From: Candidatus Rifleibacteriota bacterium
GTDB taxonomy: Bacteria; Muiribacteriota; Ozemobacteria; Ozemobacterales; Ozemobacteraceae
Length of the DNA: 64,000 bases
Reading direction: 5' to 3'
NCBI GenBank assembly: GCA_018818125.1
Contig: JAHISQ010000034.1
Coordinates: forward strand, 30,592-94,591
The notes under the pieces are model-generated. The model did no database searches, had not been told where the DNA came from, and saw only the letters and a list, made by a program, of their open reading frames with translations. The translations under genes were made by a program, and so were the position numbers. Below, one piece after another: positions 1 to 16,356 of the stretch; positions within the stretch are counted from its first letter, which is position 1; each line of letters opens with the position of its first letter.

Positions 1-2
1 TT

Positions 3-89
3 CCAGGTATGCTGGTGGCGGTGCCACTTACCGTGATTCTCAAAGTTCTCGGCCGTGAGCTTTATCACGAGCTTTATGACCCGGTGTGA
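3..89 (+). CDS. 3' end of an upstream ORF (partial at the window edge); product unknown
   Basis: Open frame 3 runs from the window edge to TGA at 87-89, immediately before the ABC ATPase start. Too short to assign. Confidence 0.2.
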   Translation, partial: PGMLVAVPLTVILKVLGRELYHELYDPV

Positions 90-1030
90 TTTATATGAAT
101 GCTGCAATAAAAGTAACCGATCTCAGTAAAAATTTTGGGCGCAAACAGGTGCTCCAGTCGTTGCACTTCAGCGTACCGCCGGATTCAATCGCCGGCTTTC
201 TGGGGCCAAATGGCGCCGGCAAGACAACCACTCTGCGCATTCTTCTGGGCCTGATTCCCTCTTATCGAGGCAATCTTGAGATGCTCGGCTGCAGTATCCC
301 CTCGCAACGCGTCGCAGCGCTTGAGCAGATCGGAGCCGTTGTCGAGAACCCCACTTTCATTGAGACCATGACAGCTTACGAGAATCTCTACTGGTTTGGC
401 TCTCTGTATAAACCGTTAACGTCGGTCAGAATCAACGAGGTTATCGAGATGGTCGGACTAAAAGAGGCGATACATCAACGTTTCGGCACTTTTTCAACCG
501 GCATGAAACAGCGACTCGGTGTCGCTTTTGGCATTCTACACAAGCCCCGCCTGCTTATTCTTGACGAGCCCACCAGTGGAATGGATCCGGCGGGCCGTGT
601 GCATATGCGCGAAATCCTCCAGCTTATTCACAGCGAAGAAAAGACCTCGATTTTTCTGTCAAGCCATCTGCTCGACGAAGTTCAGCGACTTTGCAATTAT
701 GTGGTCATCATTGACAAGGGTGTAACTGTCAGCCAGGGCTTCGTCGCCGACCTGCTCGCCAGCCACCTTGAAAAATGGGAAATCAGAATGGCTGACGAAG
801 AAATCGCGCAAGCCAGACAGCTTATCGAAAATCTCGGGCAACAGATTATTGTTGCCAGCACGCCGAGAGGGTTGCTCTTAACCATGACGACCGGTTTATC
901 GGCGCAGGTTAATCAGGCGCTGGTAAACGCCAACATCAAAGTCAGCGCCCTGATACCTCAGGAAGCGTCACTCGAAGAAACGTTCATCAAGCTCACCTCC
1001 GACTCCGGTGACAAGGGAGGCAGCTCATGA
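86..1030 (+). CDS. ABC transporter ATP-binding protein
   Basis: Walker A GPNGAGKTT, ABC signature STGMKQRL and Walker B LLILDEPTSGMD are read directly from the translation. GTG start at 86, with an alternative ATG at 95. Confidence 0.9.
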   Translation: MIYMNAAIKVTDLSKNFGRKQVLQSLHFSVPPDSIAGFLGPNGAGKTTTLRILLGLIPSYRGNLEMLGCSIPSQRVAALEQIGAVVENPTFIETMTAYENLYWFGSLYKPLTSVRINEVIEMVGLKEAIHQRFGTFSTGMKQRLGVAFGILHKPRLLILDEPTSGMDPAGRVHMREILQLIHSEEKTSIFLSSHLLDEVQRLCNYVVIIDKGVTVSQGFVADLLASHLEKWEIRMADEEIAQARQLIENLGQQIIVASTPRGLLLTMTTGLSAQVNQALVNANIKVSALIPQEASLEETFIKLTSDSGDKGGSS

Positions 1031-1959
1031 AGCGAATGCTGTTTCTGGTTCTGTTCGAACTTAAAAAGATTCTAAACCGCAAAAAAGCCCTGCTGTTTCT
1101 GGTAGCACTTAATGTGGTACCGCTGGTAGCCAGTCTGGCGCTACTGATCGCCTTCGTAAAGTTCAAAGGATTTGGCTTTGGCGAAATTCAGTTTTCAGTG
1201 CTGCATGAAGTCGTTCAGGGGCTTTTTACCGGCCATGTTAAGCTGTTTGCCTTTATCGCCCCGTTTTTTCTGGCGCTGGTAGTCGGCGACAGCTTTTCGA
1301 CCGAATTCAGTAGGGGCTACATGAAGATGCTGCTGCTGACACCAATAAACCGTTGGCAGGTGATTACTGCCAAAACAGTGGCGATAATGATTTTTCTGCT
1401 ACTCGCTGTTTGCATTGGTGGCATGTTTTTGCAGGCAGATCTGCTTATTGCACGAACACTCACACAAAATTCTGGACTGATACCCGAGTCGATGGTGCAG
1501 AATCTACCTGGCGGGCTTGGTGAGCTCGGCGATCTCGTCAAGAATCGCCCTCCCACGTATCTGGTAAGCACTGCATCCGCCCTGCAACTGCTGGCGATGA
1601 CATTCTTCGGAAACCTTATGCTAATCGGCTTTTTCATTGTATTTTCACTGTTTTTTGAGTCAGCAATTCTGATGTCATTCACCAGTTTGAGCGTACTCAT
1701 GGGTATCCATACCTTTTACCTGGTCGCCAGCGGGCTGCTCAATAAAATCGACCCATGGTATGACGCACTGGCAAAATGGTGTTTTACGCGTCATCTAGAC
1801 GATATTTTTGCGATCAAGAACATCCAAAGCATTCTTGACGGCAAAGCCAGTCTCCTCAGCGAAGGCATCTTTTCATCGCTGCTGGCAGTATCAATCTGGA
1901 CAGCAGCATTCTATCTGCTGGCTACGCTGATCTTTTCCCGCCGCCAGATTCTGCATTGA
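1027..1959 (+). CDS. ABC-2 type transporter permease (polytopic membrane protein)
   Basis: The ATGA start/stop overlap with the upstream ATPase indicates translational coupling. About six hydrophobic helices are visible. No diagnostic motif was found beyond topology and context. Confidence 0.6.
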   Translation: MKRMLFLVLFELKKILNRKKALLFLVALNVVPLVASLALLIAFVKFKGFGFGEIQFSVLHEVVQGLFTGHVKLFAFIAPFFLALVVGDSFSTEFSRGYMKMLLLTPINRWQVITAKTVAIMIFLLLAVCIGGMFLQADLLIARTLTQNSGLIPESMVQNLPGGLGELGDLVKNRPPTYLVSTASALQLLAMTFFGNLMLIGFFIVFSLFFESAILMSFTSLSVLMGIHTFYLVASGLLNKIDPWYDALAKWCFTRHLDDIFAIKNIQSILDGKASLLSEGIFSSLLAVSIWTAAFYLLATLIFSRRQILH

Positions 1960-1969
1960 GCAAGTGCAC

Positions 1970-2284
1970 TTAACGCAGTTTTTCAACGGCCTCCGGGTGC
2001 TTCTTAAGATAGGCCTGGCGAAAAGTCTGTGCGTCTTCATGTTCAGCAAATGCGCTATTCCAGCGATACCCAGCCACGGTAACTGCCAGCAGAGATATGA
2101 TCAATATGATCATTGGCAAAACTATATGTTGCCCCAGGGGCTTTTTGCAGTCGGGGCACTCGTCTACCTGAAGTTTGCAATATTCGCATTTTATAGTTGT
2201 CATATTACCTGGCCGTCTTTGGGTTTTGATAATTAATGCAGAGATACATGATATTCTCGAAAGCTGCAAACTCCAGATTAACAA
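1970..2284 (-). CDS. Small zinc-ribbon membrane protein; start more likely at MTTIKCEY (around 2203), giving about 77 aa
   Basis: CEYC...CPDC is a CxxC-x-CxxC zinc ribbon, followed by one transmembrane helix (IVLPMIILIISLLAVTVAGY). It lies directly downstream of the 304-aa zinc-ribbon/TM gene, and the two genes abut. Confidence 0.45.
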   Translation of the reverse strand: MLIWSLQLSRISCISALIIKTQRRPGNMTTIKCEYCKLQVDECPDCKKPLGQHIVLPMIILIISLLAVTVAGYRWNSAFAEHEDAQTFRQAYLKKHPEAVEKLR

Positions 2285-3119
2285 CTGATTCTGGAGTATT
2301 CCAACAGTAGCTTATAATACGATTATGGGCCATTACTGACTCAACTTTTTGCTTAGCGCTTAAACTGGCATCCAGCTCGCCCAGACTACGCTCCAAAGGT
2401 TCTCCCAACTGAAAAACCAGAGAGCTGTACGTTTCGGAAAAAAATTGTTCTATACTTTGAAGATCGCAAAGTGCAGTGTTACGTGGGATCGGAAAAATTG
2501 CAAAATCGCTTTGTATAACCCTGTCAGCACTTTCGCCAATCTTGGGAACCTTGGCGAGGTCGAGCTGTTCCAAACCCTGGCACTTGTGCCCGAAAAAAAT
2601 GTATCGACCTGCGATGAGACGGCTTGAAGAAAAATCGTATCTGATAACTGTGTCAAAGTTGCTAATTCTATCAATGTAGTCAAGATTGTATGCGCTACTA
2701 TCATTTAGCAATTCAGCCTTTTCTTCTTCCACAATGCGACTCCGCGCCCCACCCCACAGGGCAGCTCTAAAATCCGCCGTTTGCCCTCTGATCGGGCTCT
2801 TTTTTGGAGTTTGTTTTGTGTCTGGATCATTTTTGGCGGCTTTGGGAGGAGTCGGCAATTTAACTGCCTCTATTTTCGACTTCTTCTCTGAGATTTCAGA
2901 AGCTTCGTTAAATGGTTTTAGTGCTACAGCTGTACCTTCGCGCAATTCAAGCTCAAGCATAAAAAAAATGACAGCAACAGCAAATACTACCGCTGAAATT
3001 TGATAGAGCAAAAGAGCCATCACGTCGGCTATTCGCTGTTTACAACCAGGACAAACATTAATTTCTTTATTACATTCCGGGCAGTAGTACATTGCCACAC
3101 GATAACATACATTTTTCAA
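2205..3119 (-). CDS. Zinc-ribbon + single-TM protein with an extracytoplasmic domain of about 240 aa (anti-sigma-like architecture, family unassigned)
   Basis: N-terminal CPECNKEINVCPGC, then a TM helix (LLLYQISAVVFAVAVIFFML), then a soluble domain with no recognised motif. The 5' end and promoter region are duplicated at 8150-8240. Confidence 0.6.
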   Translation of the reverse strand: MKNVCYRVAMYYCPECNKEINVCPGCKQRIADVMALLLYQISAVVFAVAVIFFMLELELREGTAVALKPFNEASEISEKKSKIEAVKLPTPPKAAKNDPDTKQTPKKSPIRGQTADFRAALWGGARSRIVEEEKAELLNDSSAYNLDYIDRISNFDTVIRYDFSSSRLIAGRYIFFGHKCQGLEQLDLAKVPKIGESADRVIQSDFAIFPIPRNTALCDLQSIEQFFSETYSSLVFQLGEPLERSLGELDASLSAKQKVESVMAHNRIISYCWNTPESVVNLEFAAFENIMYLCINYQNPKTAR

Positions 3120-3190
3120 AGTATAAAATATTAATTATGTGTGGATTTCTGCCGATATATTGTTAGAAATAAAAATATTCGGAGGCAAAA

Positions 3191-3529
3191 ATGCAATCTT
3201 TTACTCGCAGAAGTTTATCGGCAATAGTCTTACTGGCAATGGTGTTTTCGTTTTTTAGCGGCATTTTGCATGCCAACAGCAAGCATGATATGTTTGAGAC
3301 CAGCGAGAAGATTGCACGTCTGAAAGCGGAAATTCGTGCGGCTCACGAAGAGCTCCGACGCCTCAACGAAGAGGGTGGAGAACAGGCTCAGGAGCAGGCA
3401 CAGGTATTAATGGCCCAGATCAAGGAATTGAAGGCAGAGCTTAAAGTTCTCGAGCAGAGTCTTGATAGCATGAAAAAAGGCGGCTCGAAACTGAGAAGCG
3501 ACAAAGTCGACCCAAGATATCGACGTTGA
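3191..3529 (+). CDS. Small secreted coiled-coil protein (112 aa)
   Basis: GGAGG ribosome-binding site 9 nt upstream. Signal peptide (LSAIVLLAMVFSFFSGILHA). Heptad-like charged helix (AEIRAAHEELRRLNEE...IKELKAELKVLEQ). A degenerate second copy lies at 8328-8562. Confidence 0.6.
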   Translation: MQSFTRRSLSAIVLLAMVFSFFSGILHANSKHDMFETSEKIARLKAEIRAAHEELRRLNEEGGEQAQEQAQVLMAQIKELKAELKVLEQSLDSMKKGGSKLRSDKVDPRYRR

Positions 3530-3565
3530 GAAATGCAGTAGCCCGCCACTAAGAGAGCTGGCAAA

Positions 3566-3608
3566 GCAAAACCGCAGAGACTACTATGAGTCTCTGCGGT
3601 TTTGTTTT
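3566..3608. terminator. Bidirectional rho-independent terminator
   Basis: Perfect hairpin CCGCAGAGACT / AGTCTCTGCGG with an A-tract on the 5' side and a T-tract on the 3' side. It terminates the small + strand gene and the convergent minus-strand operon. Confidence 0.65.
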
Positions 3609-3653
3609 AACAGATTAAAAAATCTACTGACCGGGGGAAGCACCACATATGCG

Positions 3654-4295
3654 CTATTTGTTCAACGTTGGCGCGAGAATCAACATGAAGACCACTATTG
3701 CCCCAGACAGGAAAAAAGCGCCGATCATGATCAACGCAAGTTCGACATTTCCCTTCGCCGATTCCTGAATGAAGGGTGTCAGGAAAACCATCGGCGAAAA
3801 TGCCGCCGCACCGCCGAGAAGGGCAAAAATCAGACGAATCAGATCCCCTATTCCGTATTTGAAACTCTTCTTGGCTGGCTTTCTTACATAGGGGCCGGGA
3901 AAATCGGAACGCGGGCGGACAACCGCAATCTCTTCTGCCGGAGCCTGTTCGGAAATACTTTCGACAACAGTATTATGCCATTCGCCGCTCGAAAAACCGT
4001 TCACAACCTCGGCAGGAGAAATCTCAAGATCCCGTTCCTCCCAGAAGAGTTTTCCCTCATCCGCAATCAGGGTCATTTTCTCCGCCGCTCCATCCAGGAA
4101 GACGTGAGGCGGACACAGACCGTCTTCAGGCCAACTCGGCGGTGGAACCAGTTGCCGGAAATCCGCCAAGAACCCTTGAAGATCTTCCAGGGAATACTCG
4201 CCCAGAGACACAATCGCCGAGCCTCCCGTGGCACGGGTGAGATCGGAAGAGACTCCCTTCACCGAAAGTTTTACTGCCATTGAAGCGACCTCCAT
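3654..4295 (-). CDS. Membrane protein: cytoplasmic domain of about 150 aa plus two C-terminal TM helices. Start may be MAVKLSV, 5 codons in.
   Basis: ORF in the GC-rich cassette. Two C-terminal hydrophobic helices (IRLIFALLGGAAAFSPMVFL, LALIMIGAFFLSGAIVVFMLIL). No recognised motif. Confidence 0.5.
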   Translation of the reverse strand: MEVASMAVKLSVKGVSSDLTRATGGSAIVSLGEYSLEDLQGFLADFRQLVPPPSWPEDGLCPPHVFLDGAAEKMTLIADEGKLFWEERDLEISPAEVVNGFSSGEWHNTVVESISEQAPAEEIAVVRPRSDFPGPYVRKPAKKSFKYGIGDLIRLIFALLGGAAAFSPMVFLTPFIQESAKGNVELALIMIGAFFLSGAIVVFMLILAPTLNK

Positions 4296-4308
4296 TGGTT
4301 TCTGTGAA

Positions 4309-7242
4309 TCATTCAGGGCGACGACAGCTCACCCTGACAGGAATGAAAGGGGCATAGCAGGCTATATCCCCGCCTTCCAAGTCTGCTTCGAAATCGACTC
4401 GGAAAACATCCTTCAAATCTATACTCCGATCCCAGGTTTGTCGGAACGGCCCCTTGGCTTGCCGCTCGAATAACGTGATCGTCTCCGGTTGCTGTTTTTC
4501 CCGCCACAACGTAATTTTCCCACGACAAAAGAATTCAGGAGGAGGATCATCATCTATCCCCGTCGCCTCCCCGGAGAACCTGAACCGGTCGCCCGTAATG
4601 ATTCCGCTGGCATTCCCCCCGAACGGACCCCAGCTGGATTGCTTATAATCAACTTTCACCCCTTCGGTTTGAAACCGCATGGTAAGATACTCTCTCGTAA
4701 GTGTGATTGCCGGGCCGACCTCGTTGCCTGACGGCGTCGAACGAACCTCTTTGGTTGTATTCGATTTATCCGGTTCATCTGGTTCAGAGGAGTCGGCTTT
4801 TTTCACCGAGACCCTCAGGGTTGAGGTAACTTGTTTTCCCGAGGTATCGACCGCCCTGACCTGAAGAGTATATTCCCCCACCTTGCTCGGCGCTTTGAAC
4901 ATAATCGTCTTGCGAACAGCCCCATCGGACTGCGGCTGGCCCTGGAGCACTTCCTTATCGTTGCCCATGGGTCCGCGAAACATGACACGATACGCTGCGA
5001 CCGCCCCGGAGACCTCCACGGACAGATCCTTTTCCTGGTTGGGTTCGAAACTTCGCGGACCGGTAAGATCAATGGCAAAGCCGGGAACGACCTTGAAGGA
5101 ATGCTTTGCTGAAGCGGAGAATACGGTGCCGCCGGCTTCGACCGTCACCTCACACATTCCCGTTTTCTTGGGAGCGGTGAAGGAAAGGGAAAACCTCTTG
5201 TTCGTAATTTTCCCGGAGACAGCCTTTGATACGCCGCTTCCCTTAAGAAAGACATCCCATGGGGGATTGGGTTTAAGCAAAGGCGACCCGCCTTCCAGGC
5301 TGAACCCGAGCGTGACGTTGCTCCCCGCAGGAACCTGCTTCGGTGCATTCAGAAAAAGAACCTGAAATGGTGGCCCCACCGCGACCTCAAGTTCCGAACG
5401 TGCGGTCTTTTTATCGGCGCTCTCCACTTCCGCCCAGATGGTAAAGGCTCCAGGCTTTTGACCCGCCGTAACCGGCAGCGTATGATTTCGCCCGGAGATT
5501 TTTTGAACGGCGGATTTTCCTGGAAGAGTTCCGCCGGTTGTCACGGTAAAAGGAGGTGTTCCTTCAAAAACCGTTACTTCAACCCGTGCCGTCTGGTTGA
5601 AACCGAGAAATTTCGGAGCGGCAACAACCACATTGAACGCCGCCGAAACATTAATCTGAGCTGAAACCTGGGCAGTCAGTTTCCCTTTATCCCCATCAGA
5701 CGCTTCGATTCGTGCCGTAATCGCGTGAGCTCCAGGTTTAACAGGAGCTTTAAAAGAAAATGGAATGACCGGATCGAATTTCCCCGAAAAACGGAGAGGA
5801 TTTTTTTGTCCCGGAACTTCAATGGTGACAGAAAACGGGGGAATTCCCTTCTCGATGATGAGTGCACCCTCGACAACTTCTCCGGCATCAGCTTCTCCGG
5901 GCAGTTCGAAACCTGCCTCGATCGTTTCTTTCACGGCCGGCAGGCCGAGACGCTCCCGCAGAGTTTTCAGCAAATCGTTTCTAGATTTTGCCAGATACTG
6001 ACGCAAGGAGATCGTCTCCGGTGATTGTGGCCCCTGACGCTGAATCAGGTCTTCGAGTTCCAGGCGTGATTTTACATGGAGCGCAAGCAGCGACCGTCCT
6101 TCAAGCATAACCGACTGATACCTGGATGCATCCAAACCCAGTTCCCGGGCGAGCCCTCCGGCAAGATTCACCCGCAACTTCATGTAGGCAAGAATATCCT
6201 GGTCAAGAGCCTTGTCTCGAGCCTTTCCACTGCCGAGACCACTACGGTGGATGGGCACTTCTTTTTCATACATTTCGACCGCCGCCACCAGAATTTCCTT
6301 TTCCTTCGCGGCGGCATCCGTCTCAGATTTATCGCGGGCTTGAAGATATCTGCCCAGCCGTCTCAACCGCTCCTCATCACCTTCGTCAGGCCAACCTAGA
6401 TTTTGAGCAAGCGTGCGCAGGTGGCCACTTTTTTCGATTCCCTTCATTCCGGTTTCCTGAGTTGTAGACATTAAAATGGTCGCCAGGTCATCAGGGTTCT
6501 GGGTTTTATCGACCCGCCACGCGTTGTAAATGGCATCCATCCCGGGGCCGAAAAAATTCTCCTCAAACCCCTGCCTCACGACAACCACAGCCGCCTGGAT
6601 CGTTTGAACCTGGGGAAAGAATTCCGCTGCTTTCTCGCCGGCGGCCTTCCACTGCTTATCTGACAACAGACCGGCAATCTCAGAAACGGTCTTGATCTTG
6701 TCAGCATTTTGAATAACCTCTCCAAGAACCGCCCCCATAACATTCAACCGGCCGCTTCCGCTCTTCATCAATGAAAGGCTGTCATCGATCTTGAGCTGGT
6801 TCAGGGGAATCGCCTTCTCGAGTCCGTGCAGAACCGATGTACCAAAAAGTGTCGCCAATTCCGTCTGGGCTTCCGCAGGATTGCCGTCGGCGATAGCGTC
6901 ACCGATCTTGATCAGATCGTCCTTGCGTTCTTCCAGAACCCCCACCATTTTCTGGTACAGCTCGCTCTTTATCTCTTCGTTGTTGAGTTTTCCCAGGATC
7001 GTGGTGGCGACGTAATCCTTGAACTTCCCCTTCAAAGCTTCGATCACCTTATCTTTGGCAGCCTGACTGAGGGGGATTGCCGCGGAACCACGTTTGACAC
7101 TTTGAGAAAGGCGCTTGGCACTGCTCTCCAGGTCGGCGGGGGTGACCCCCGCAATTTTGGAGGAACGCCGTTGGCCAAAGGAACCGCCGGCAATCAGGAG
7201 GAATGTCGCAAGAAAAAACGCTGTCAGCCGAGATTTTTTCAT
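4309..7242 (-). CDS. Large secreted protein (about 977 aa): alpha-helical N-terminal region of roughly 450 aa followed by several repeated beta-rich segments of unassigned fold
   Basis: Signal peptide MKKSRLTAFFLATFLLIAGGSFG. Its ATG overlaps the stop of the upstream 251-aa gene as ATGA. The C-terminal half has repeated segments of about 90-100 aa rich in V, T, G and P with recurring GTPPFTVT / GPPFQVLFL-like strands. Coding GC is visibly higher than in the flanks. Confidence 0.7.
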   Translation of the reverse strand: MKKSRLTAFFLATFLLIAGGSFGQRRSSKIAGVTPADLESSAKRLSQSVKRGSAAIPLSQAAKDKVIEALKGKFKDYVATTILGKLNNEEIKSELYQKMVGVLEERKDDLIKIGDAIADGNPAEAQTELATLFGTSVLHGLEKAIPLNQLKIDDSLSLMKSGSGRLNVMGAVLGEVIQNADKIKTVSEIAGLLSDKQWKAAGEKAAEFFPQVQTIQAAVVVVRQGFEENFFGPGMDAIYNAWRVDKTQNPDDLATILMSTTQETGMKGIEKSGHLRTLAQNLGWPDEGDEERLRRLGRYLQARDKSETDAAAKEKEILVAAVEMYEKEVPIHRSGLGSGKARDKALDQDILAYMKLRVNLAGGLARELGLDASRYQSVMLEGRSLLALHVKSRLELEDLIQRQGPQSPETISLRQYLAKSRNDLLKTLRERLGLPAVKETIEAGFELPGEADAGEVVEGALIIEKGIPPFSVTIEVPGQKNPLRFSGKFDPVIPFSFKAPVKPGAHAITARIEASDGDKGKLTAQVSAQINVSAAFNVVVAAPKFLGFNQTARVEVTVFEGTPPFTVTTGGTLPGKSAVQKISGRNHTLPVTAGQKPGAFTIWAEVESADKKTARSELEVAVGPPFQVLFLNAPKQVPAGSNVTLGFSLEGGSPLLKPNPPWDVFLKGSGVSKAVSGKITNKRFSLSFTAPKKTGMCEVTVEAGGTVFSASAKHSFKVVPGFAIDLTGPRSFEPNQEKDLSVEVSGAVAAYRVMFRGPMGNDKEVLQGQPQSDGAVRKTIMFKAPSKVGEYTLQVRAVDTSGKQVTSTLRVSVKKADSSEPDEPDKSNTTKEVRSTPSGNEVGPAITLTREYLTMRFQTEGVKVDYKQSSWGPFGGNASGIITGDRFRFSGEATGIDDDPPPEFFCRGKITLWREKQQPETITLFERQAKGPFRQTWDRSIDLKDVFRVDFEADLEGGDIACYAPFIPVRVSCRRPE

Positions 7243-7994
7243 AGAATGTCGCTCCATGAGACGACTGAATCGCCTTCTGACAGCTCTTGGGTGAGCTTCA
7301 TGTCGAGATCTGTGATCTTCTCCAATAGTATTTTTTGCCGGTTTAGAGGGAGACGCAGAACATCATCCCGGATCATTCGCAGTTGTTGGGCCTTCTGAGC
7401 GGCATCTAGGGGCAGGTTGCTGTTTTCGAGACGGTCGAGAGCCGAAAAGAACTGTCTCACGGTCGCATCCGACCGCAGTTTTCCGGCCCCTGCACCGGTT
7501 CCGGACTCCCGGAAGTTTCCGATGAAAAACAACAAAACCAGGATTGCCGCAACAAAAAGAACGGCCCCAACCCACCCTTTTGCAGGTGCTCTTTCCACCA
7601 CCGCGCCGGTTGTCATTGGGGAATTGAGACGAGAAAGCGCGGAGCAAGTTTCCCCTGGATCCTTGCTTGCAGCCGAACCATCAATCTTGACGAGCATTCG
7701 ATCCACAAAATCAAGGGTCGCTTGAACGGAAGCCATTCGCACAGTATTTCCGGAAGGAAACGTCTGCAACAACACCCCGTTTTCCACGATAAAAGTAAAG
7801 GCAAATCTTCGTGGATCGACGATCATCGCCGCGCTTTCACCGGCAGAACCATTTGGAGCTGCGCTGATCCGGAACAACGCGGCAAAGAATTGCTTCAACC
7901 GCAACCGGGATACTTCTCCAACCTGTATGACCTGACCGGAGAAAGAGGGTTGAAAATCAGAGCCGAAACCCCTCAATGAAACATCATACCGCAT
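7239..7994 (-). CDS. Bitopic membrane protein (251 aa), function unknown
   Basis: Single central TM helix (WVGAVLFVAAILVLLFFIGNF). Translationally coupled to the 977-aa gene. Shares the GC-rich composition of the cassette. Confidence 0.5.
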   Translation of the reverse strand: MRYDVSLRGFGSDFQPSFSGQVIQVGEVSRLRLKQFFAALFRISAAPNGSAGESAAMIVDPRRFAFTFIVENGVLLQTFPSGNTVRMASVQATLDFVDRMLVKIDGSAASKDPGETCSALSRLNSPMTTGAVVERAPAKGWVGAVLFVAAILVLLFFIGNFRESGTGAGAGKLRSDATVRQFFSALDRLENSNLPLDAAQKAQQLRMIRDDVLRLPLNRQKILLEKITDLDMKLTQELSEGDSVVSWSDIL

Positions 7995-8240
7995 TAAACG
8001 TCCTCCCCTCCGTCACTTCGCAATGAACTACCACGCTGTTCAGATTTCAATGGTCGAACCCGGCAAAATCCCGGGTCAATCGCAACGCTTAACGGCGGCA
8101 GGCTAACAAGAAGCTCAGCGAACATTACCGCAGAAACCTGGCAGAGCAAAATAGCCGTCACGTCGATTATTTGCCGATTACAGCCTGAGCAGGATGCAAT
8201 TTATTTCTTACATTCCTGGCAGTAGTACATTTCCACACGA
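7995..8240 (-). pseudogene. Disrupted paralog of the zinc-ribbon/TM gene (N-terminal part only, with an internal stop and frameshift)
   Basis: Near-identical to the nucleotides of the first ~35 codons of the 2205-3119 gene and its upstream region. A 5-nt indel gives MYYCQECKK-stop. Homology resumes in the +1 frame (CSGCNRQIIDVTAILLCQVSAV...) and ends at a TAA that overlaps the ATG of the 251-aa ORF. Confidence 0.5.
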
Positions 8241-8327
8241 TAGCATAATTTTCTTGAAATATAAAATGTCTAATATGCGCGAATTTCTGTCAATATATTG
8301 TTAGAAAGGAAAATATTCGTAGGCGAA

Positions 8328-8562
8328 ATGGCAATCTTTTACCCGCAGAAGTTTATCTGCAATAGTTTTACTGGCAATGGTGTTTTAGTTTTGTGGCAGT
8401 ATTTTGCATGCCAACAGCAAGCATGATATGTTTGAGACCAGCGAGATGATTGCACGTCTGAAAGCGGAGATTCGTGCAGTTCATGAAAAGCTCCGACGCC
8501 TCAACGAGAAAGGCGTCTCGAAACTGAGAAGCGACAAAGTCGATTCAAGATATCGACGTTGA
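8328..8562 (+). pseudogene. Degenerate copy of the small secreted coiled-coil gene
   Basis: Aligns with 3191-3529 but has an early in-frame stop after about 26 codons, because a 1-nt change turns TTTTCG into TTTTAG. It also carries an internal deletion of about 115 nt that removes the coiled-coil core. The flanking promoter and terminator sequences are conserved. Confidence 0.5.
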
Positions 8563-8600
8563 GAAATGCAGTAGCTCGCCACTAAGAGAGCGTGCAAAGC

Positions 8601-8642
8601 AAAACCGCAGAGACTTTATTAGTCTCTGCGGTTCTATTTTTA
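8601..8642. terminator. Bidirectional rho-independent terminator (second copy of the 3566-3608 hairpin)
   Basis: CCGCAGAGACT..AGTCTCTGCGG hairpin flanked by A and T tracts. It also lies just downstream of the 3' end of the C11 peptidase gene at 8657. Confidence 0.55.
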
Positions 8643-8656
8643 AAGGAGTGTAAGGC

Positions 8657-10015
8657 TTATTTGTTTTTAAGTTCGCTGATCAGATTGCAAACGTTAGTCT
8701 GAGTAGCTTCATCGAGACCGCCTTCAACAAATACTCTGAAGTTCAGTTTGGCAATAACGTTGGCGCTAACTTCGCGGTTCTTTTCATTGGCAGTAGAAAC
8801 ATAATCTACCAGGCTTGAAACATCACCACGGCTGATATCAGCAACCAGAGTCTTAACAGCGGCTTTTTTGTAGTAATCTTTAACCATGGTTTCCCACATA
8901 CAATCTTTGGCAAAGGCCAGGTCTTTGTATTCTGCAGAAAAGCTGTAAGAAGAAGTCGGGAAGTAGATGGCCAGGCCAGTAGCATTCTTGGTATTGTAAC
9001 CACTCAGGCCATTGCAAACAACGGTCTTAGCATAAGCAGCTTCGAGTTTCTTGGCCGCAGTCTGGAAACCTTCGTCCTTGATACTTTCTTTGGCCAGAGC
9101 CACGAAGTGACCAAGATCAATGTTGGTTCTGTAATAGAATTTCTGAACACGGTTAAGAGCAGACTTGAATTCGACGGCATATTCGCCGGCCATAGATGCT
9201 TTTGCAAAGCCGTTAATAGCGTCATTCAGGTTATTGATCTCGCTGCATTTGAGAGCAGACTGGGTGCCTGATGAGTTACCAGCGCTACCACCGTTGTAAG
9301 AAATAGCATACTGCTTAACAATAACTGTTGCCAGCTGCTCAGGAGTGATGCCTTTTTTGAAGTTCTCGATAATTTCTTTGTAGGGATAGCCTTCACCAGG
9401 TTCAGTTTCCTGAGAAGCTATAAAATAGTCACAGCCATCTTTTACTGCATAAGCAACTTCCATCATCTGCATAAGGCAAGCATCGAAAGATAGAACATCA
9501 AGTTTTTTGCCAAGTGCAGTTTCGATTTCTTTCAAAGCAACAGTCAGCTGATTGGTAGTGATGTGGTTGTTTGATGAATCATCATAAGAAATACCTTTGA
9601 TGATTTCGTCATTAGCGTTTTTCCAACCGGAGCCATGGTTCCAGATAATTGAACAATAATGTTTGGCCGGATAGGCTTTGGCAGTTTCAGTAACAAATTT
9701 TACATATTCGCGATAGTCGCCCATGTCAAGCTCGCCCATCTCTTTAACAACCTGGATGCCATCTTTAGCAACATAGTTAAGAGTAGCCGGAGCATTTTCG
9801 CGGTCGATAAGGCACACAATGTTAATATTATCGTTTGATCCGCCACCAGCTACCATTTCTTGGAGATCGCCCACGCCGAAAGAATCAAGATTGTTATCGG
9901 CATTCAAAAAAACCATGAATGTCCATTCTTTTTGGGCAGCGGCGCCAGCTGGTGTACAAAAACAAAGTGCAAAGAAAGCAATGGCTAAAATACTAATGAC
10001 TCGTTTCATCTTCAA
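8657..10015 (-). CDS. Secreted clostripain-like cysteine peptidase (family C11)
   Basis: Signal peptide. Motifs WTFMVFLNADNNLD, catalytic His in IIWNHGSGW and catalytic Cys in LSFDACLMQMMEV match the C11 His-Cys dyad pattern. Confidence 0.8.
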   Translation of the reverse strand: MKMKRVISILAIAFFALCFCTPAGAAAQKEWTFMVFLNADNNLDSFGVGDLQEMVAGGGSNDNINIVCLIDRENAPATLNYVAKDGIQVVKEMGELDMGDYREYVKFVTETAKAYPAKHYCSIIWNHGSGWKNANDEIIKGISYDDSSNNHITTNQLTVALKEIETALGKKLDVLSFDACLMQMMEVAYAVKDGCDYFIASQETEPGEGYPYKEIIENFKKGITPEQLATVIVKQYAISYNGGSAGNSSGTQSALKCSEINNLNDAINGFAKASMAGEYAVEFKSALNRVQKFYYRTNIDLGHFVALAKESIKDEGFQTAAKKLEAAYAKTVVCNGLSGYNTKNATGLAIYFPTSSYSFSAEYKDLAFAKDCMWETMVKDYYKKAAVKTLVADISRGDVSSLVDYVSTANEKNREVSANVIAKLNFRVFVEGGLDEATQTNVCNLISELKNK

Positions 10016-10140
10016 TACTCCTTATACTCTTATACAAAACTTATACAATACTCACAGAACACCTACAAAACACTTATACAATACCTAATCAATACTTATA
10101 CTACGTTCATTCATTATAATTATCAAAAAGTACAGTGTCA
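10016..10140. promoter_or_regulatory. 5' region of the C11 peptidase gene containing imperfect direct repeats of ACTTATACAAWAC
   Basis: At least four copies of CTTATACAA / CTTATACTC / CTTATACAATAC lie within about 80 bp immediately upstream of the start codon at 10015. This may be an operator-like repeat array. Confidence 0.3.
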
Positions 10141-10221
10141 ACAGATATAATCATTTTTTTCATGTTGCTAATTGCAAAAGTAAGTTCTGGTTGACCATTT
10201 GAAATTTTTGATGATGACATA

Positions 10222-10257
10222 GAAAAAAACAAGTGGCTGCTGTTGCCAGCAGCCACC
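10222..10257 (-). terminator. Rho-independent terminator downstream of the second C11 peptidase gene
   Basis: GTGGCTGCTG-TTGCC-AGCAGCCAC hairpin followed by a T-run on the minus strand (an A8 run on the + strand). Confidence 0.6.
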
Positions 10258-10279
10258 ACTAAGAACTAATAAACACCTG

Positions 10280-11650
10280 TCAGCGGGCTATAGAGCCAGA
10301 AAGCTGCTTGAAAAGTCCGCTAAATTCTTCTGAGAGAGACTCAGGCAATCCCTTTTCTGTATACATTTCATAGTTAAGCTCACGAATAATAAAGCGGTAG
10401 AAATCTGCATTTTCTGAATTGCTCATGGCGGAAGCAACCAGATTGCGCATCTCGTCAAGACTCCCTGCCTTGATCTCGCTGACAACATTTGCCGCTATAT
10501 CACGCTTGAGAAGAGTTTGAATCATTTCATCCCAGAGTGTCGCCTTGGCAAAGCTGAGTGTCAAATATTTGGCTTCAATCCGGAAGGTTGATGGCAGATA
10601 GATGGCGATACCCTTAGCGTTTTTAGTTGAATTACCAGTGTTTTTGCAGGCGATAACAGCAGCTTTGCCAGCAACCAGAAGCTTGTCGCAAGCAGTTTTT
10701 ACTGATTCATTGCTGCTCATGCGGGCTTTAAGTAATTCGGCGAAATGCAGCATGCTGATGTTTTCTGGGAAGTCGAACTTATGAGTGTTAGCCAAAACTT
10801 CTTTAACTTCGGTTGAGTATTTGCCGCTCATAAGTGCTTTGGCCAGACCGTTTATGGCGTCAACCATTTTATCGAATTTGCTCATATCAACAGCTGACTG
10901 AGTAGATTCATCGTAACCCTGACTGCCACCAGTATATGATTTTGAAAAAGCGTTAACCCAGTTGATCGCAAAGGCTGAAGGAGTCATGCCTTTTTTAACG
11001 CCGACGAGAATATCGTCGTAAGGAGCACCTTTGCCAGGCTCAAGTTCTTCAGAGGCGACCATAAACCCGACGTTGTCTTTAACAGCGTGACCAACTTCGA
11101 CCATCTGCATCAGACACGCATCCATGTTAAGAACGTCAATTTTCTGGCCAAGAATCTCGACCATTTTGGCAGTAGCCAAAGACAACTGAGCGCTAGTTAT
11201 ATGATTGTTAGAAGAGTCGTCATAAGAGATGCCACGGAAAATGTTGTTTAATTTCTTGCCCTTCCAGCCGGAGCCATGGTTCCAGATGGTGAAACTGTAG
11301 TGTTTTGCTGGATAATTCTCTTTTACAAAGCTGGCGAACTTGACAAGTTCGTTGTAATCACCCATATCAACTTCGCCCAAGTCTTTAATCTTGGTAATAT
11401 TATTCTTTTCTATGAAATTAATCTGCGCCGGGCCGCGTTCGCGGTCAATCAAAGTAACAACGTTAAGGTTTGCGTTGGAGCCAACACGAGACATTTCTGT
11501 CTGATCTTCAACTCCAAATTCGTCAAGGTTGTTGTCGGCATTGAGAAAAACTGCTACGGTCCAGTCCTTGAGCTGCTGCGCGCTTGCAGGCGTAAGAACG
11601 ACGAACATAAACAGGGTGGTTACTGCGACGATACTTGCTACTCGCTTCAT
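10280..11650 (-). CDS. Secreted clostripain-like cysteine peptidase (family C11), paralog of 8657-10015
   Basis: Signal peptide. WTVAVFLNADNNLD, FTIWNHGSGW and LNMDACLMQMVEV motifs. The sequence is collinear with the neighbouring paralog across its full length. Confidence 0.8.
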   Translation of the reverse strand: MKRVASIVAVTTLFMFVVLTPASAQQLKDWTVAVFLNADNNLDEFGVEDQTEMSRVGSNANLNVVTLIDRERGPAQINFIEKNNITKIKDLGEVDMGDYNELVKFASFVKENYPAKHYSFTIWNHGSGWKGKKLNNIFRGISYDDSSNNHITSAQLSLATAKMVEILGQKIDVLNMDACLMQMVEVGHAVKDNVGFMVASEELEPGKGAPYDDILVGVKKGMTPSAFAINWVNAFSKSYTGGSQGYDESTQSAVDMSKFDKMVDAINGLAKALMSGKYSTEVKEVLANTHKFDFPENISMLHFAELLKARMSSNESVKTACDKLLVAGKAAVIACKNTGNSTKNAKGIAIYLPSTFRIEAKYLTLSFAKATLWDEMIQTLLKRDIAANVVSEIKAGSLDEMRNLVASAMSNSENADFYRFIIRELNYEMYTEKGLPESLSEEFSGLFKQLSGSIAR

Positions 11651-12026
11651 TCTCGGTCTCCCTGAGCTTATTAATCTTATCCGGGAACGCTTATAGCCGG
11701 ATACTTAGATTGTAATGACCAACAAGAGTATCCGCAAGGGATAAAAGCAAAATATTTTGCATTTTGCGATTTTAATTGCTTCTGGTCTTTTGCTTGTAGT
11801 GCTGTCATTTCGGCAGGTTGCGCTCTTATCATGCGTTGTAACAGCACTAAGGCTCACCAGATCTCGCTTTCTCGGAAACTGCGATTGCCCTGAGAACAAA
11901 TGCTTTAATGGTCGCTGTAAAAAAAATATGGCGTTCAACACGAAAGTTGATAATATGTTTGCTTGAAGAACAACAAATTCTCACAAGATCACAGAAATAC
12001 AAACAAAAATAAACTCAGGTAAACAC

Positions 12027-12488
12027 ATGGAAAAGCTTAATTTTATCGTAGCGACTAAAGAGATTGTAGACGAACTCTTTGAATTTGAAAAAGTCTGTTT
12101 TGAAAACAAGCCAGATCAGTTTTCGAAACGCAGCTTGCGCCACCTTATCGTTTCGCCGACCAGTCGAACCATTATCATTCGCAACGAAAAAGGCAAGATA
12201 TGTGCTGCCGCAATTGGTCTGCTGCGGCATTTTAAAATACCTTCAGGGCGCATCTACAAAATCGGAGTATTGACTGAGTTTGCACGGCGCGGAGTTGGCA
12301 CCGCCCTGATAGAAGAAATCGAAAAATGGTTCAAAAACTCAGGAATGAAAAAAACATGCGCCGAGGTGCGTGAGAGTAACACACCTTCGCGACGCATGTT
12401 CGAGAAAAAGGGCTATGTTGAAACCAAAACGCTTTACTATTTTTACGCGGGCGGCGAAAACGCCGCCAAATATTGGAAAGATCTGTAA
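12027..12488 (+). CDS. GNAT family N-acetyltransferase
   Basis: Acetyl-CoA binding motif RRGVGTALIEEIEKWFKNSGMKK and the C-terminal stretch NTPSRRMFEKKGY. Length of 153 aa fits the family. Confidence 0.75.
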   Translation: MEKLNFIVATKEIVDELFEFEKVCFENKPDQFSKRSLRHLIVSPTSRTIIIRNEKGKICAAAIGLLRHFKIPSGRIYKIGVLTEFARRGVGTALIEEIEKWFKNSGMKKTCAEVRESNTPSRRMFEKKGYVETKTLYYFYAGGENAAKYWKDL

Positions 12489-12494
12489 TCGTTA

Positions 12495-13427
12495 TCAGAC
12501 AGCAGTATCAATCAAACTGGTCTTGGCAGATTCTTTTTCTTCTGGAGCTTTGGCCAGTTTTTCGTAGCCAGACAGCCTGTTGTTGAACAAATTTTCGAAC
12601 AACTGCTGTTTGAACTTCTCGGTATATTTCAAAAAGTCTTCAAGAAAATTCTTGTAGTCGCTCTGACTGACCTTTTTATCTGGCTGAAACAACAGCTCGA
12701 TCTTCGGGGTGTCACCTTCTACGGTTGCTTCGCCAGTCGGCACAGCTCCTTCTGGAACAGATTCCGGTAATGCGCCTCCCATTTCTGGGCTTGCGAGAGC
12801 CGCGCTTCTCACTCCGCCCACATCAGCGAAAAAGGCCGTGGCCTGCTCCTGCATAGCGCCTTTGATCTGATCAAAAGCACCATTAGCCGACCCGTAAGTG
12901 TCTTCGAGGCTGGCGAAAAATTTATCAGATTCCTTCAAAAAGTTTTCGAGCGCAGCTGGACTAAGATCTGCCAGACCTTCGACTGCATCAAAAAATTGGT
13001 TGGTGACTTCAGGAGAGATGTCGAGTGACTTGTCAGTGCCGTTCATAAAAGAGCCAACAGCATCTATCGACAGATCAAAGCTGCTCATAAAAGTTTCAGA
13101 AACTGTGCCACTGAGTTCGACAAAGCGCTCAGCACCTTTCTGACCCATTTTGGCTTCTACCTTGCTGGTTAGTTCATAAAAAAGATCAAACTGAAAAGAA
13201 ATATTGAGGCCGTCGGCCTGGATTGTCTGTGGGTCTTTTTCGTCGGCAACTTCGGGCTTGTCTTTTTTGCCAGTCAGACTGGTATCTTTACTCTTTTCAA
13301 AGACATCCTGAAGTTTCTGTAACCCTTTGGGAAGAAGTTCCGGATCCTTATTAGCCTTCTGGTTGTTGCGCATTTCTCTGAGCTGTTCGAGAAGCGACCT
13401 TCCTTGGTCTGGTAGACGAATATTCAT
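12495..13427 (-). CDS. Hypothetical acidic cytoplasmic protein (310 aa)
   Basis: Long ORF with good coding periodicity and no signal peptide. Rich in D, E and F. No motif recognised. Confidence 0.4.
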   Translation of the reverse strand: MNIRLPDQGRSLLEQLREMRNNQKANKDPELLPKGLQKLQDVFEKSKDTSLTGKKDKPEVADEKDPQTIQADGLNISFQFDLFYELTSKVEAKMGQKGAERFVELSGTVSETFMSSFDLSIDAVGSFMNGTDKSLDISPEVTNQFFDAVEGLADLSPAALENFLKESDKFFASLEDTYGSANGAFDQIKGAMQEQATAFFADVGGVRSAALASPEMGGALPESVPEGAVPTGEATVEGDTPKIELLFQPDKKVSQSDYKNFLEDFLKYTEKFKQQLFENLFNNRLSGYEKLAKAPEEKESAKTSLIDTAV

Positions 13428-13827
13428 TTTCTGCCTCCTTGCAGTTGATGCGACACAATTTTCCTTGTCTTAGATACTAATCGACAAAATGACGACTAAA
13501 GTTTACGACAATAAAGAGGTGTTTTAGACCGAATCCAGCCTTTAAACGCAAAAATCTTATCGGATCAGGCTATTTCCTCTAAAAATATTGAAAATATACC
13601 AACATCATCTGTCATTGCTTTAGTAATGCCAATCCCAAGAACAGATTGCTGCAATCGCAACCGCGAGCAATAAGCGCAACTAACGAGATTTCGCGCAATT
13701 TACGCAGAAAGCGCTTCACACAAAAAAGCAAAAACGCAAAAACGCAAAAACTATGCGAACATTTTTTGCGTGACTTTGCAGCTTAGTGTAATCAAATAAG
13801 TTTCTTGCTGAACCAGCAGTGTACAGT

Positions 13828-15498
13828 CTATTCTTCAGGATTTTCAGAATTCTTGGCTTCTTTGGTGTTTTCAGTGTCCTCGACGACCTCAGTGTCTTCG
13901 AGGACTTCAGTTTTTTCGAGGACTTCAGTATCCTTGATGACTTCAGAATCCTCAATGTCTTCGGTGTCCTCGGTGTCCTCGGTGACATAAGGAATATCTG
14001 GGACTTCTTGCAGGTAATCAAATTCTATTATTGGCCAGTTGACGAAATCAAGATGCTGATCAAGCGTGCTTTGCAGCAAAGCAAAAGCCTCAGCACTGCC
14101 TTCGTCAGCTTCAGAGGCTGCGGCAGATACTTCGCCCTCAGCAAGCCTGGCAGTCTGATTAAGCATGTCATTCAGCAGAACAAAACTCTGGCGCAATTCC
14201 TGTTGAGCAGAGAACTCCGTTGTTTCTGCCTCATCAAGGTCACGGTCCGGGTATTTGTCAGTAAATTCGGCAATGCGGGCAGCTCGGCGTGATCCTTTGC
14301 CGGCCATAATTTCGATTTCGCTCAGCCGGTTCTGTACAAGCTTTTCGAATTTACCGGCAAAAACACTGAATTTTTCCCGATAGTTACGCAGACTGAAGGC
14401 AAAGTCGTTACAGCTGCGAAAAATTCGACCAAGCTGTGAACCCTGCATGACGCCAGGCGCATGATCGCTGACAGCAAGAAAATAGTCGATATTCACGAGG
14501 CAAAACTGGTAATGGTGCTCGAATTGATTCAACAGCGCGACAAGCTGACTGTTCTGGTTCTCTAATAAAACAAGCATATCACGGTTAGTCGCACGCAAAA
14601 ACCCTGGAATGCGGCCCTGAACGTGGCGACGTGAGTTCTGCAACCCGGCCTGCTGGCAGAAATCTGCAATTTGACCTGAAAGTTTGCGCAACATCTGAGC
14701 TAGTTTATCCTGAATGTCGAGCAGATTGCGCAGTTCACTTAACCTGATTTCGCGCGCCAGCGGCTCGCGAATCAGCTCGTTGGTAAAAGTGTGCATAAGA
14801 GTTCTGGTTGTGTTTTCGCAGACGATATTACCGATCTCAAACAGGCGCGGAAACACAAGCATCGCGGCGTTTACAGTATAGACATTATGATTGGCGACTC
14901 GCGCTAAAAACTCGCAATGCCGGCGAAAGCTGCGATCATCACTGGTTCCAGCAATGATTGCCAGGGCGCGGCGACTGAATTCTCCAGATTTTACTGCCAG
15001 CTTATGACTCTGTTCGAAGTGTTCTTCGATATCTTTGAGCGAACCCTGAGTGTACGGCTCGCCGTCGAACGGACCAGGCGCTGCCTTTTCTGGTTCGGGT
15101 TCTATTTCTTCTGTTTGCGAAGCGATTTCTTCGTGCTGGCCGGTCTCATCGCCCAACCGTGCTGTTTCTGATCCCACAATTGAATCCTCTGAAATAACAC
15201 CATCTACAGCCGAGTCCTTTTCTACGACGGCAGCGACAGGCAAATCTGCATCTGGCGCTTTTTCTACTGTTAAGTCTGCAACCGGCTCTTCAACCAGACC
15301 GGTTCCCGCCAACAGGCCTTCCCTGACACTACCAGCGTCTTCAGGAGACTGCACAACCGCGGAAACAGTAGTTTTATCAGCACTACTTGATTCAGAAACA
15401 GCAGCTGGCACAGCAATGTTCTGGGCAAATACAAAACCAGGAAAAGAGAAAGCCGCTGTAAGGAACAGCGGCATTGCAATCAATAATGTTTTTTTCAT
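13828..15498 (-). CDS. Secreted acidic protein with a C-terminal tandem-repeat tail
   Basis: Signal peptide MKKTLLIAMPLFLTAAFSFPGFVFA. The N-terminal third is highly acidic. A central domain of about 250 aa has no recognised motif. The C-terminus is an (E/D)-T-E-[VI] repeat array. Confidence 0.5.
   Translation of the reverse strand: MKKTLLIAMPLFLTAAFSFPGFVFAQNIAVPAAVSESSSADKTTVSAVVQSPEDAGSVREGLLAGTGLVEEPVADLTVEKAPDADLPVAAVVEKDSAVDGVISEDSIVGSETARLGDETGQHEEIASQTEEIEPEPEKAAPGPFDGEPYTQGSLKDIEEHFEQSHKLAVKSGEFSRRALAIIAGTSDDRSFRRHCEFLARVANHNVYTVNAAMLVFPRLFEIGNIVCENTTRTLMHTFTNELIREPLAREIRLSELRNLLDIQDKLAQMLRKLSGQIADFCQQAGLQNSRRHVQGRIPGFLRATNRDMLVLLENQNSQLVALLNQFEHHYQFCLVNIDYFLAVSDHAPGVMQGSQLGRIFRSCNDFAFSLRNYREKFSVFAGKFEKLVQNRLSEIEIMAGKGSRRAARIAEFTDKYPDRDLDEAETTEFSAQQELRQSFVLLNDMLNQTARLAEGEVSAAASEADEGSAEAFALLQSTLDQHLDFVNWPIIEFDYLQEVPDIPYVTEDTEDTEDIEDSEVIKDTEVLEKTEVLEDTEVVEDTENTKEAKNSENPEE
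13850..13990. repeat. Coding tandem repeat (period about 9-18 bp) specifying the EDTE(V/I) tail of the 556-aa secreted protein
   Basis: GAGGACTTCAGT / GATGACTTCAGA / GTCCTCGGT units are repeated head-to-tail. Arrays like this are prone to length variation. Confidence 0.5.
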
Positions 15499-16267: not shown

Positions 16268-16356
16268 GTCGGGGCATGAGAAAAGAAAGTATAAAAATTG
16301 CAGGTTATAGCAAGCAAAATCTTACACACATTTTTTCTGTGATCTGACTGGCGCGT

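Follow-up and report, generated by a model that had tools for sequence, protein, structure and literature searches.

How did three genes that none of the related genomes carry come to stand between two copies of a short segment of resident DNA? The question is raised by a 64-kb stretch (hereafter the window; positions 30,592 to 94,591 of contig JAHISQ010000034.1) that forms part of a 223-kb contig in a metagenome-assembled genome (MAG) of Candidatus Riflebacteria. The window is chromosomal DNA, encoding among others SMC, a DEAD-box helicase, and histidine kinases. The phylum of the source organism has, to our knowledge, no cultured members, and the literature on Riflebacteria offered nothing about the present locus. 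Between the predicted terminator of a coiled-coil gene and the gene of a C11 peptidase, resident DNA of ~0.64 kb is present on both sides of three intact genes (the cassette). We regard it as probable, though by no means certain, that the cassette is an envelope operon that was horizontally acquired and integrated along with duplication of the resident segment, most likely by insertion-duplication.

The Duplicated Resident Module

Comparison of the window with itself yielded exactly two direct copies of the ~0.64-kb segment. Positions 2978–3369 match 8116–8507 at 84% identity and 3476–3608 match 8509–8640 at 92%, and no other copy occurs in the 64 kb. The initial annotation of the window, made from the letters alone, had described 3010–3610 and 8150–8650 as homologous, each with the 5' end of a zinc-ribbon/transmembrane (TM) gene, a divergent region, a coiled-coil gene, and a palindromic hairpin, and all these parts were recovered. 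In either copy the first ~38 codons of the zinc-ribbon/TM gene (minus strand) are followed by ~98 nucleotides (nt) of divergent intergenic DNA, the coiled-coil gene (plus strand), its 3' untranslated region (UTR), and the hairpin. The features of the module are as follows:

2978–3613, no strand assigned: repeat copy 1, intact, comprising the N-terminal zinc-ribbon codons, the divergent intergenic region, the coiled-coil gene, its 3' UTR, and the predicted terminator
8116–8645, no strand assigned: repeat copy 2, decayed, found by the self-comparison and rich in derived changes
2205–3092, minus strand: ZnR295, intact resident gene for a protein with a zinc ribbon (CxxC..CxxC), a TM segment, and a C-terminal domain of ~240 amino acids (aa)
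3093–3190, no strand assigned: divergent intergenic region of copy 1, with blocks conserved in five orthologous loci; putative promoter region
3191–3529, plus strand: cc112, intact gene of a small coiled-coil protein with a signal peptide
7994–8230, minus strand: psi-ZnR', zinc-ribbon remnant with 38 homologous codons, interrupted by a stop, and then ~40 cassette-specific codons
8231–8328, no strand assigned: divergent intergenic region of copy 2, 79% identical to that of copy 1; putative cassette promoter
8329–8562, plus strand: psi-cc, coiled-coil pseudogene with a lost start codon, a premature stop, and a deletion

Copy 1 is intact and copy 2 carries lesions in both of its genes, as had been stated before. 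In the zinc-ribbon remnant, TAA stands at codon 10 (8201–8203). In the coiled-coil remnant, the start ATG has become TGG at 8329–8331, TAG follows at 8386–8388, and 105 nt of copy 1 (about 3370–3475) are missing, an in-frame deletion of 35 codons; the Shine-Dalgarno sequence of this gene is weakened as well (CGGAGG to CGTAGG). At positions conserved among the outgroups, copy 2 has 31 derived changes and copy 1 has 16. Substitutions between the copies are spread flatly over the three codon positions (5/6/9 and 8/8/12), which indicates relaxed constraint on copy 2. With disabling lesions, a flat spectrum, and a twofold excess of derived changes, the coding remnants of copy 2 have the properties of pseudogenes. 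Its intergenic region lost the Shine-Dalgarno sequence and the start codon on the coiled-coil side and kept the conserved blocks proximal to the zinc-ribbon gene, a pattern that is consistent with a promoter role without being proof of one.

The comparison loci from Riflebacteria are designated L003–L009, L024, and L027. In seven orthologous loci the coiled-coil/zinc-ribbon module is single-copy and the cassette is absent, and none of the related loci carries a duplication of the module. Within the zinc-ribbon segment either copy is closer to its counterpart (75% identity) than to any ortholog (68% at most), and over the whole module both are about equally distant from the outgroups; the duplication thus arose within this lineage. 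Identity between the copies is graded along the repeat, with 76% in the zinc-ribbon part, 79% in the intergenic region, 91–94% in the coiled-coil gene (94% in its 3' part), and 89% in the terminator.

Composition and Distribution of the Cassette

The insert between the copies (3614–8115) contains three intact genes, all on the minus strand, and is bordered on its far side by a resident peptidase gene:

7239–7994, minus strand: p251, gene of a bitopic protein with an N-terminal domain, one TM segment at residues 136–165, and a helical C-terminal tail
4309–7242, minus strand: p977, gene of a secreted protein (KKB51_04610 at NCBI) with a helical N-terminal region, four beta-sandwich domains, a disordered linker, and a small C-terminal domain
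3654–4280, minus strand: p208, gene of a protein with an N-terminal domain akin to that of p251 and its partner family (see below) and two C-terminal hydrophobic segments
8657–10015, minus strand: C11a, resident gene of a clostripain-family peptidase flanking the insertion site (Pfam PF03415, E = 2.8e-55)

The cassette had been presented as a trio of genes coupled by ATGA overlaps. This applies to the junction of p251 and p977 alone; a gap of 28 nt lies between p977 and p208, which narrows to 13 nt with an upstream ATG. Each cassette gene is preceded by its own GGAG(G) Shine-Dalgarno sequence, which in p208 is a GGAGG 9 nt upstream of the ATG.

The GC content (guanine plus cytosine) of the cassette is 53.2%, with 56.2% in its highest 500-nt interval and 47.7% in the window as a whole. 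Earlier hand counts of 55–60% for the cassette and ~38% for the zinc-ribbon gene, which measures 43%, were therefore both off the mark. The assertion that composition is not flat across the region fared better. Among 121 4-kb intervals, 4001–8000 is the most deviant in tetranucleotide usage (L1 distance, z = +4.9; GC-normalised correlation 0.62 against a mean of 0.89, z = −4.65). The pooled synonymous-codon distance between the cassette and the rest is 0.177 (z = 7), compared to 0.077 ± 0.014 and a maximum of 0.117 in 39 contiguous gene sets of similar size. Codon shares shift from the rest to the cassette in both directions, for Arg from 0.39 to 0.11 in CGC and from 0.08 to 0.33 in CGG, for Thr from 0.11 to 0.36 in ACG, for Ser from 0.06 to 0.27 in TCC, and for Asp from 0.56 to 0.76 in GAT; this is not a simple effect of GC content at third positions.

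Distribution points in the same direction. The related loci share the order coiled-coil gene, divergent zinc-ribbon gene of ~294 aa, ZnR77 (a second zinc-ribbon gene, described below), ABC-2 transporter, and AI-2E transporter, and nothing similar to p251, p977, or p208 was detected in L003–L009, L024, or L027. Between C11a and the coiled-coil gene, L009 and L027 have one or two small membrane-protein genes, and unrelated genes occupy the corresponding site in L024. These differences in gene content mark the site as a variable slot. Searches for phage, plasmid, viral, PHROG, or defense-system similarity of the cassette found none. Together with homologs of only ~25% identity on contigs of 71–74% GC (see below), codon usage, tetranucleotides, and absence from the orthologous loci bear out the proposal that the cassette is foreign. 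Four disabling lesions fall in the ~350 nt of coding remnants in copy 2 and none in the 4,317 nt of the cassette reading frames; if cassette and copy 2 are of the same age, this contrast would place the cassette under purifying selection.

Alternatively, everything could be native: two old paralogous modules, one of them heading p251-p977-p208, would have been inherited vertically and lost elsewhere in Riflebacteria, while gene conversion kept the modules similar. The graded identity of the copies with its sharp boundaries is the pattern that gene conversion leaves, and past its stop psi-ZnR' remains an open frame for 68 codons, up to TAATG at the start of p251, as though a real first gene had formerly stood there. 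However, codon usage and tetranucleotides of the cassette lie far outside the host range, no match to the cassette exists in any of the seven orthologous loci or among further Riflebacteria proteins in 5.8 billion clusters, zinc-ribbon genes are absent upstream of the p977 relatives, and both genes of copy 2 are dead. We consider a native origin very unlikely.

Soundness of the Assembly

A locus with a repeat and a compositionally odd insert, known from a metagenome assembly and supported at the contig level, might also result from strain haplotypes chained serially or from a chimeric join of foreign DNA into a Riflebacteria contig. Positions 1–17242 of the window are identical in sequence to contig k141_1751895 of ENA assembly ERZ27247128. 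The copies differ at 8–25% of positions, and their longest common exact run is 46 nt (3263–3308, equal to 8401–8446), far below the k = 141 of the contig assembly, so that the assembly graph is unambiguous here. Moreover, an independent assembler (Logan, k = 31) yielded two contigs from run SRR6514274 that match the window at 100% identity. One extends from 8430 down to 3279 and joins sequence specific to copy 2, the whole cassette, and sequence specific to copy 1; the other extends from 15640 down to 8417 and joins C11a to copy 2. Three of the Logan contig ends are situated within the repeats, each of them precisely 30 nt (k − 1) inside the 46-nt run, where a branch in the de Bruijn graph is expected if the reads hold both copies. 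Riflebacteria-specific sequence flanks the cassette on both sides, and no cassette-less variant contig encoding an identical coiled-coil or C11a protein is on record. Since two assemblers reproduce both copies with distinct flanks, the earlier concern that one copy might be a collapse artefact is answered at the contig level, and an artefact of assembly or binning appears highly improbable.

Distant Relatives and Predicted Products

None of the cassette proteins was assigned to a family in Pfam, NCBIfam, PHROGs, or PADLOC, and profile comparison with PDB gave only weak PKD/Ig matches. A word-indexed search of 5.8 billion clusters returned p977 itself and nothing else, both with the single sequence and with a profile. 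An exhaustive HMMER search of 1.84 billion cluster representatives, in contrast, retrieved four full-length relatives of 909–921 aa with 25–27% identity, besides a few partial matches. One of them (P0014) aligns to residues 55–907 of p977 with E = 2.9e-43, and the others (P0015–P0017) gave E values of 4.7e-25 to 4.2e-23. Their contigs, which come from metagenomes, have a GC content of 71–74%, compared to 48–51% in the Riflebacteria loci.

In all four relatives, the start of the large gene is overlapped by 4 nt by a gene for a bitopic protein of 255–350 aa, and the junctions in these modules and in the cassette read ATGA, TTGA, or GTGA. The partners and p251 have a common architecture of N-terminal domain, linker, a single TM segment, and helical C-terminal tail; the linker is K-rich in the relatives and hence probably cytoplasmic, by which the N-terminal domains are also predicted to be cytoplasmic. 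A profile of the four partners aligned in register with residues 2–100 of p251 (hhalign score 35.4) and with residues 5–85 of p208 (34.4), while 50 shuffles of each protein reached at most 19.4 and 32 real proteins of the window at most 18.2. As both scores lie far above the controls, p251 and p208 share their N-terminal domain with the partner family. Paralogy of p251 and p208 was not significant by direct BLASTP and was recovered only through this profile.

The initial annotation had suggested to look for 977-aa homologs beside a zinc-ribbon/TM gene. No such gene lies upstream of the p977 relatives in the four gene maps; their neighbors are the bitopic partner and often an RDD protein. RDD membrane proteins stand beside the pair of partner and large protein in three of the four GC-rich relatives (L010:7868–8455, L013:1441–1926, L016:186–770). 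The RDD protein may be a third component of the GC-rich module that is absent from the Riflebacteria cassette. Membership of p208 or of the psi-ZnR' tail in the RDD family (PF06271) was tried and rejected: Pfam gave no hit with E < 0.1, and hhalign against three neighboring RDD proteins gave E values of 0.23 and 0.59.

The AlphaFold2 (AF2) model of p977 has an overall predicted local distance difference test (pLDDT) score of 62, with a helical region at 35–431, four beta-sandwich domains at 442–813 (pLDDT 70–85), and then a disordered linker and a poorly modeled C-terminal domain. From these architectures one may picture an envelope complex in which the periplasmic tail of p251 holds or senses the secreted p977 and p208 serves as a second membrane subunit. 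With about five full-length members of the large protein among 1.84 billion cluster representatives, cassette and relatives define a very rare, putative envelope module.

Predicted Terminator Hairpins and the Variable Slot

A palindromic hairpin (CCGCAGAGAC..GTCTCTGCGG) closes each repeat copy; 100 shuffles produced no match to it.

3563–3608, no strand assigned: hairpin of copy 1, bidirectional intrinsic terminator, predicted to end the coiled-coil gene (plus strand) and the cassette operon (minus strand)
8596–8640, no strand assigned: hairpin of copy 2, predicted to now end the C11 peptidase gene

The hairpin of copy 1 forms a 20-bp stem that folds with −38.8 kcal/mol on the plus strand (z = −8.95) and with −32.8 kcal/mol on the minus strand (z = −5.8), and is flanked by an A-tract and, on its opposite side, by a U-tract. 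Strong folding on both strands between such tracts suggests a bidirectional intrinsic terminator. In copy 2, the flank nearest to C11a is similar to the terminators of C11a in L009, L024, and L027.

The stem core CCGCAGAGAC/GTCTCTGCGG occupies 3572–3599 and 8605–8631 in the window and is also paired in relatives, at 5130–5155 and 6021–6046 in L009, at 1679–1704 and ~2060–2095 in L027, and at 6–31 and 9483–9508 in L004. What the paired hairpins enclose beside the coiled-coil gene varies from one 72-aa gene (L027) or a 70-aa and a 151-aa gene (L009) to a whole Che operon (L004) and, in the window, the cassette. Such identity of the stems is unlikely by chance and suggests duplication of the hairpin or recombination at the slot. 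The 3' UTR of the coiled-coil gene (TGAGGAATGCAG...) is conserved across species. Downstream of this gene, L005 (~4040–4145) and L007 (~9060–9163) have stems with compensatory changes, CCGCCGGGGCTC/GAGTCCGGCGG and CCGCCAAAAC/GTTTTCGGCGG, so that the structure of this predicted terminator is kept even where its sequence differs.

One might go further and take the palindromic terminator for a target of recombination by which a slot for gene capture is defined in Riflebacteria, as represented by these four genomes. Insertions at the palindrome would then regularly duplicate their target, by ~30 nt in the relatives and by 640 nt here, and the duplication would provide foreign operons that lack a promoter of their own with both a promoter and a terminator of resident origin. 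We consider this generalization quite unlikely.

Direct repeats around the insert, a palindromic hairpin at each end, and the recurrence of the same hairpin around other variable genes in relatives could also be taken for the ends of a conventional mobile element, be it a transposon, an integron cassette, an integrative and conjugative element, or a prophage remnant. Yet there is no transposase, integrase, or phage or plasmid homology in or beside the cassette, no tRNA was found in the window and no terminal inverted repeat at the insert ends, and the repeat, 640 nt with a pair of resident genes, greatly exceeds the length of a target-site duplication. Nor is the hairpin dispersed: it occurs twice in 64 kb, and its 12 matches in the whole metagenome collection lie mostly in unrelated contexts, which also led us to reject a repetitive extragenic palindromic (REP)-like element. 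A transposon or composite of insertion sequences was discarded for lack of inverted repeats and transposase and in view of the long repeat of resident genes. Similarly, an integron cassette was dismissed, as the two hairpins are the only ones in 64 kb and are strong terminators with A- and U-tracts, and no integrase occurs among the neighboring genes. A conventional mobile element of any of these types is scarcely credible.

How the Arrangement Arose

A truncated next to an intact gene is the classical outcome of insertion-duplication by a single crossover. The locus has the corresponding layout: direct repeats of a resident segment flank 3614–8115, an insert that the orthologous loci lack, and ZnR295 runs intact through copy 1, while homology in copy 2 stops after ~38 codons and gives way to cassette sequence. 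According to this scenario, a circular intermediate carrying a copy of the resident segment would have recombined by one crossover between the coiled-coil terminator and the C11 peptidase gene, duplicating resident DNA on both sides; one copy would thereby run on into the intact zinc-ribbon gene, and the other would break off where homology ends. The divergent intergenic region of copy 2 would then supply the promoter of the cassette, with the dead zinc-ribbon remnant as leader of the operon, and the bidirectional hairpin of copy 1 would terminate it. The redundant coding fragments of copy 2 would have decayed while selection kept the cassette intact.

The initial annotation had offered two routes, insertion of a foreign cassette downstream of the module and segmental duplication followed by replacement of the downstream genes of one copy, and a single genome cannot separate them. 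A two-step history in the latter sense would start when slippage or microhomology gave rise to a tandem duplication of the resident module. Foreign DNA would then have been captured at or near the junction, or would have replaced the distal part of the second zinc-ribbon copy, and selection would have kept the arrangement since a resident promoter was placed before a promoterless foreign operon. Tandem duplications are the commonest rearrangement in bacteria. A-runs at both ends of copy 1 (2961–2969 and 3617–3622) are possible microhomology for a slippage-type duplication, the graded identity of 76–94% suggests separate histories for parts of the repeat, and the site is a variable slot in relatives. 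However, A-runs or T-runs are expected beside any terminator, the route requires two independent events at one point, its intermediate with two adjacent repeats was seen in no relative, and no leftover of a zinc-ribbon gene body exists between the copy 1 terminator and p208, where 3614–3653 are 40 nt of unrelated sequence. We take this history seriously and consider it rather unlikely. Insertion-duplication is ranked first because one event suffices; by either route, the foreign genes would gain a complete transcription unit.

Several observations weigh against insertion-duplication of a foreign operon as set out above. By GC content alone the cassette is only ~1.5 standard deviations high, as genes in the window average 48.3% with a standard deviation of 3.0% and one gene of a housekeeping region reaches 54.2%. 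We infer horizontal acquisition from composition and distribution, and no donor or close relative is known. No recombinase, plasmid, or phage signature was found, and the origin of a circle that carried foreign genes together with a resident segment is unaccounted for. The promoter in copy 2 is putative, and a scan for sigma-70 sites was not above background (9 sites against 5.3 ± 2.6). One event with subsequent neutral decay would not predict the graded identity between the copies, so that either partial gene conversion at a later time or a history in two steps must be invoked as well. Finally, both assemblies may share reads, and support for the arrangement is at the level of contigs.

Resident Genes around the Insertion

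Resident genes not listed above include:

1970–2203, minus strand: ZnR77, gene of a 77-aa zinc-ribbon and TM protein downstream of ZnR295

ZnR295 has 12 homologs, all of Riflebacteria type and 56–64% identical. Its TM segment lies at residues 20–53, and it was assigned to no family in Pfam, NCBIfam, PHROGs, or PADLOC; the AF2 model built on the 12 homologs (pLDDT 44) is too poor for a fold search. Orthologs of cc112 are 58–69% identical and divergently oriented to ZnR295 in all related loci, and matches of cc112 in Pfam were generic coiled-coil noise only. With no family assignment for either protein and an unusable model of ZnR295, the label of a regulatory module that had been attached to this pair is not substantiated. 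Orthologs of ZnR77 are 52–57% identical and keep the same position in all related loci. ZnR77 (1970–2203) is a distant paralog of the ZnR295 N-terminus (2973–3083; 28% identity over 39 aa, E ~0.01), which indicates that the locus had two zinc-ribbon/TM genes before the duplication.

The orthologs of C11a are 81–86% identical, with 81–82% in L009 and L027 and the closest, at 86%, in L024. Beside C11a (8657–10015), a tandem clostripain-family paralog (C11b) of ~45–48% identity lies at 10280–11650; each has a signal peptide, and the pair is also kept in L009 and L024. The C11b ortholog of L024 (493–1841) matches as two segments that meet at 1038 and differ in frame, which hints at either a frameshift or an error of sequencing. 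Upstream of C11a, 10029–10101 of the intergenic region consist of ~6.6 tandem copies of the 11-nt unit CTTATACAATA, also scored with a period of 22 nt; spaced by a helical turn, they may be an array of sites bound by a regulator. The p208 and C11a genes end in the same 8 nt (TATTTGTT on the plus strand, encoding Asn-Lys-stop) at 3655–3662 and 8658–8665, at differing distances from the repeat ends, which is probably due to chance. A scan of 1–13000 against Rfam matched no family.

Comparison with Known Systems

The closest counterpart of the cassette is the unnamed two-gene module of P0014–P0017. Both have a large protein that is homologous over nearly its full length (E from 3e-43 to 4e-23), a homologous partner N-terminal domain, and the 4-nt overlap of start and stop. 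The module differs in its low identity (25–27%), in the usual presence of an adjacent RDD protein where the cassette has the N-domain paralog p208, and in a very different host GC content. The four tandem beta-sandwiches of the p977 model further recall the macroglobulin/Ig-domain strings of complement C3 and alpha-2-macroglobulin, the only kind of match returned by Foldseek (E ~1e-12 to macroglobulin-domain arrays). However, TM-scores of such matches are 0.15–0.2, p977 has no thioester or bait region, and its helical N-terminal half is unmatched, so that the model points to a generic resemblance in fold and not to membership.

Regarding the arrangement, Campbell-type insertion-duplication offers repeats around heterologous DNA with one intact gene and one 3'-truncated copy, and is reversible in principle. 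The event described here is a natural one with no evident circular donor, vector, or recombinase, and its repeats are 76–94% identical in a graded manner, not ~100%. Tandem duplication with divergence and promoter capture resembles it in that a promoter segment is duplicated, one copy drives new genes, and coding parts decay; here, though, the copies are 4.5 kb apart with compositionally foreign DNA between them, and relatives show no tandem intermediate. With genomic islets and islands the cassette shares atypical codon and oligonucleotide usage, a sporadic distribution, and a site of variable content. It departs from them in comprising three genes only and in its much longer repeat of functional resident genes, and neither integrase or other mobility genes nor a tRNA or att target were found in the flanking genes and the scans of the window.

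Lineage-specific horizontal acquisition combined with segmental duplication is a known kind of event, and nothing in this locus overturns current understanding. Its value is descriptive, with the variable slot flagged as a lead on hairpin-associated gene capture. Compared to the systems above, it provides a natural example of how a foreign operon may become a transcription unit, in that the flanking duplication would place a resident promoter before the operon and a bidirectional terminator behind it, after which redundant fragments decay.

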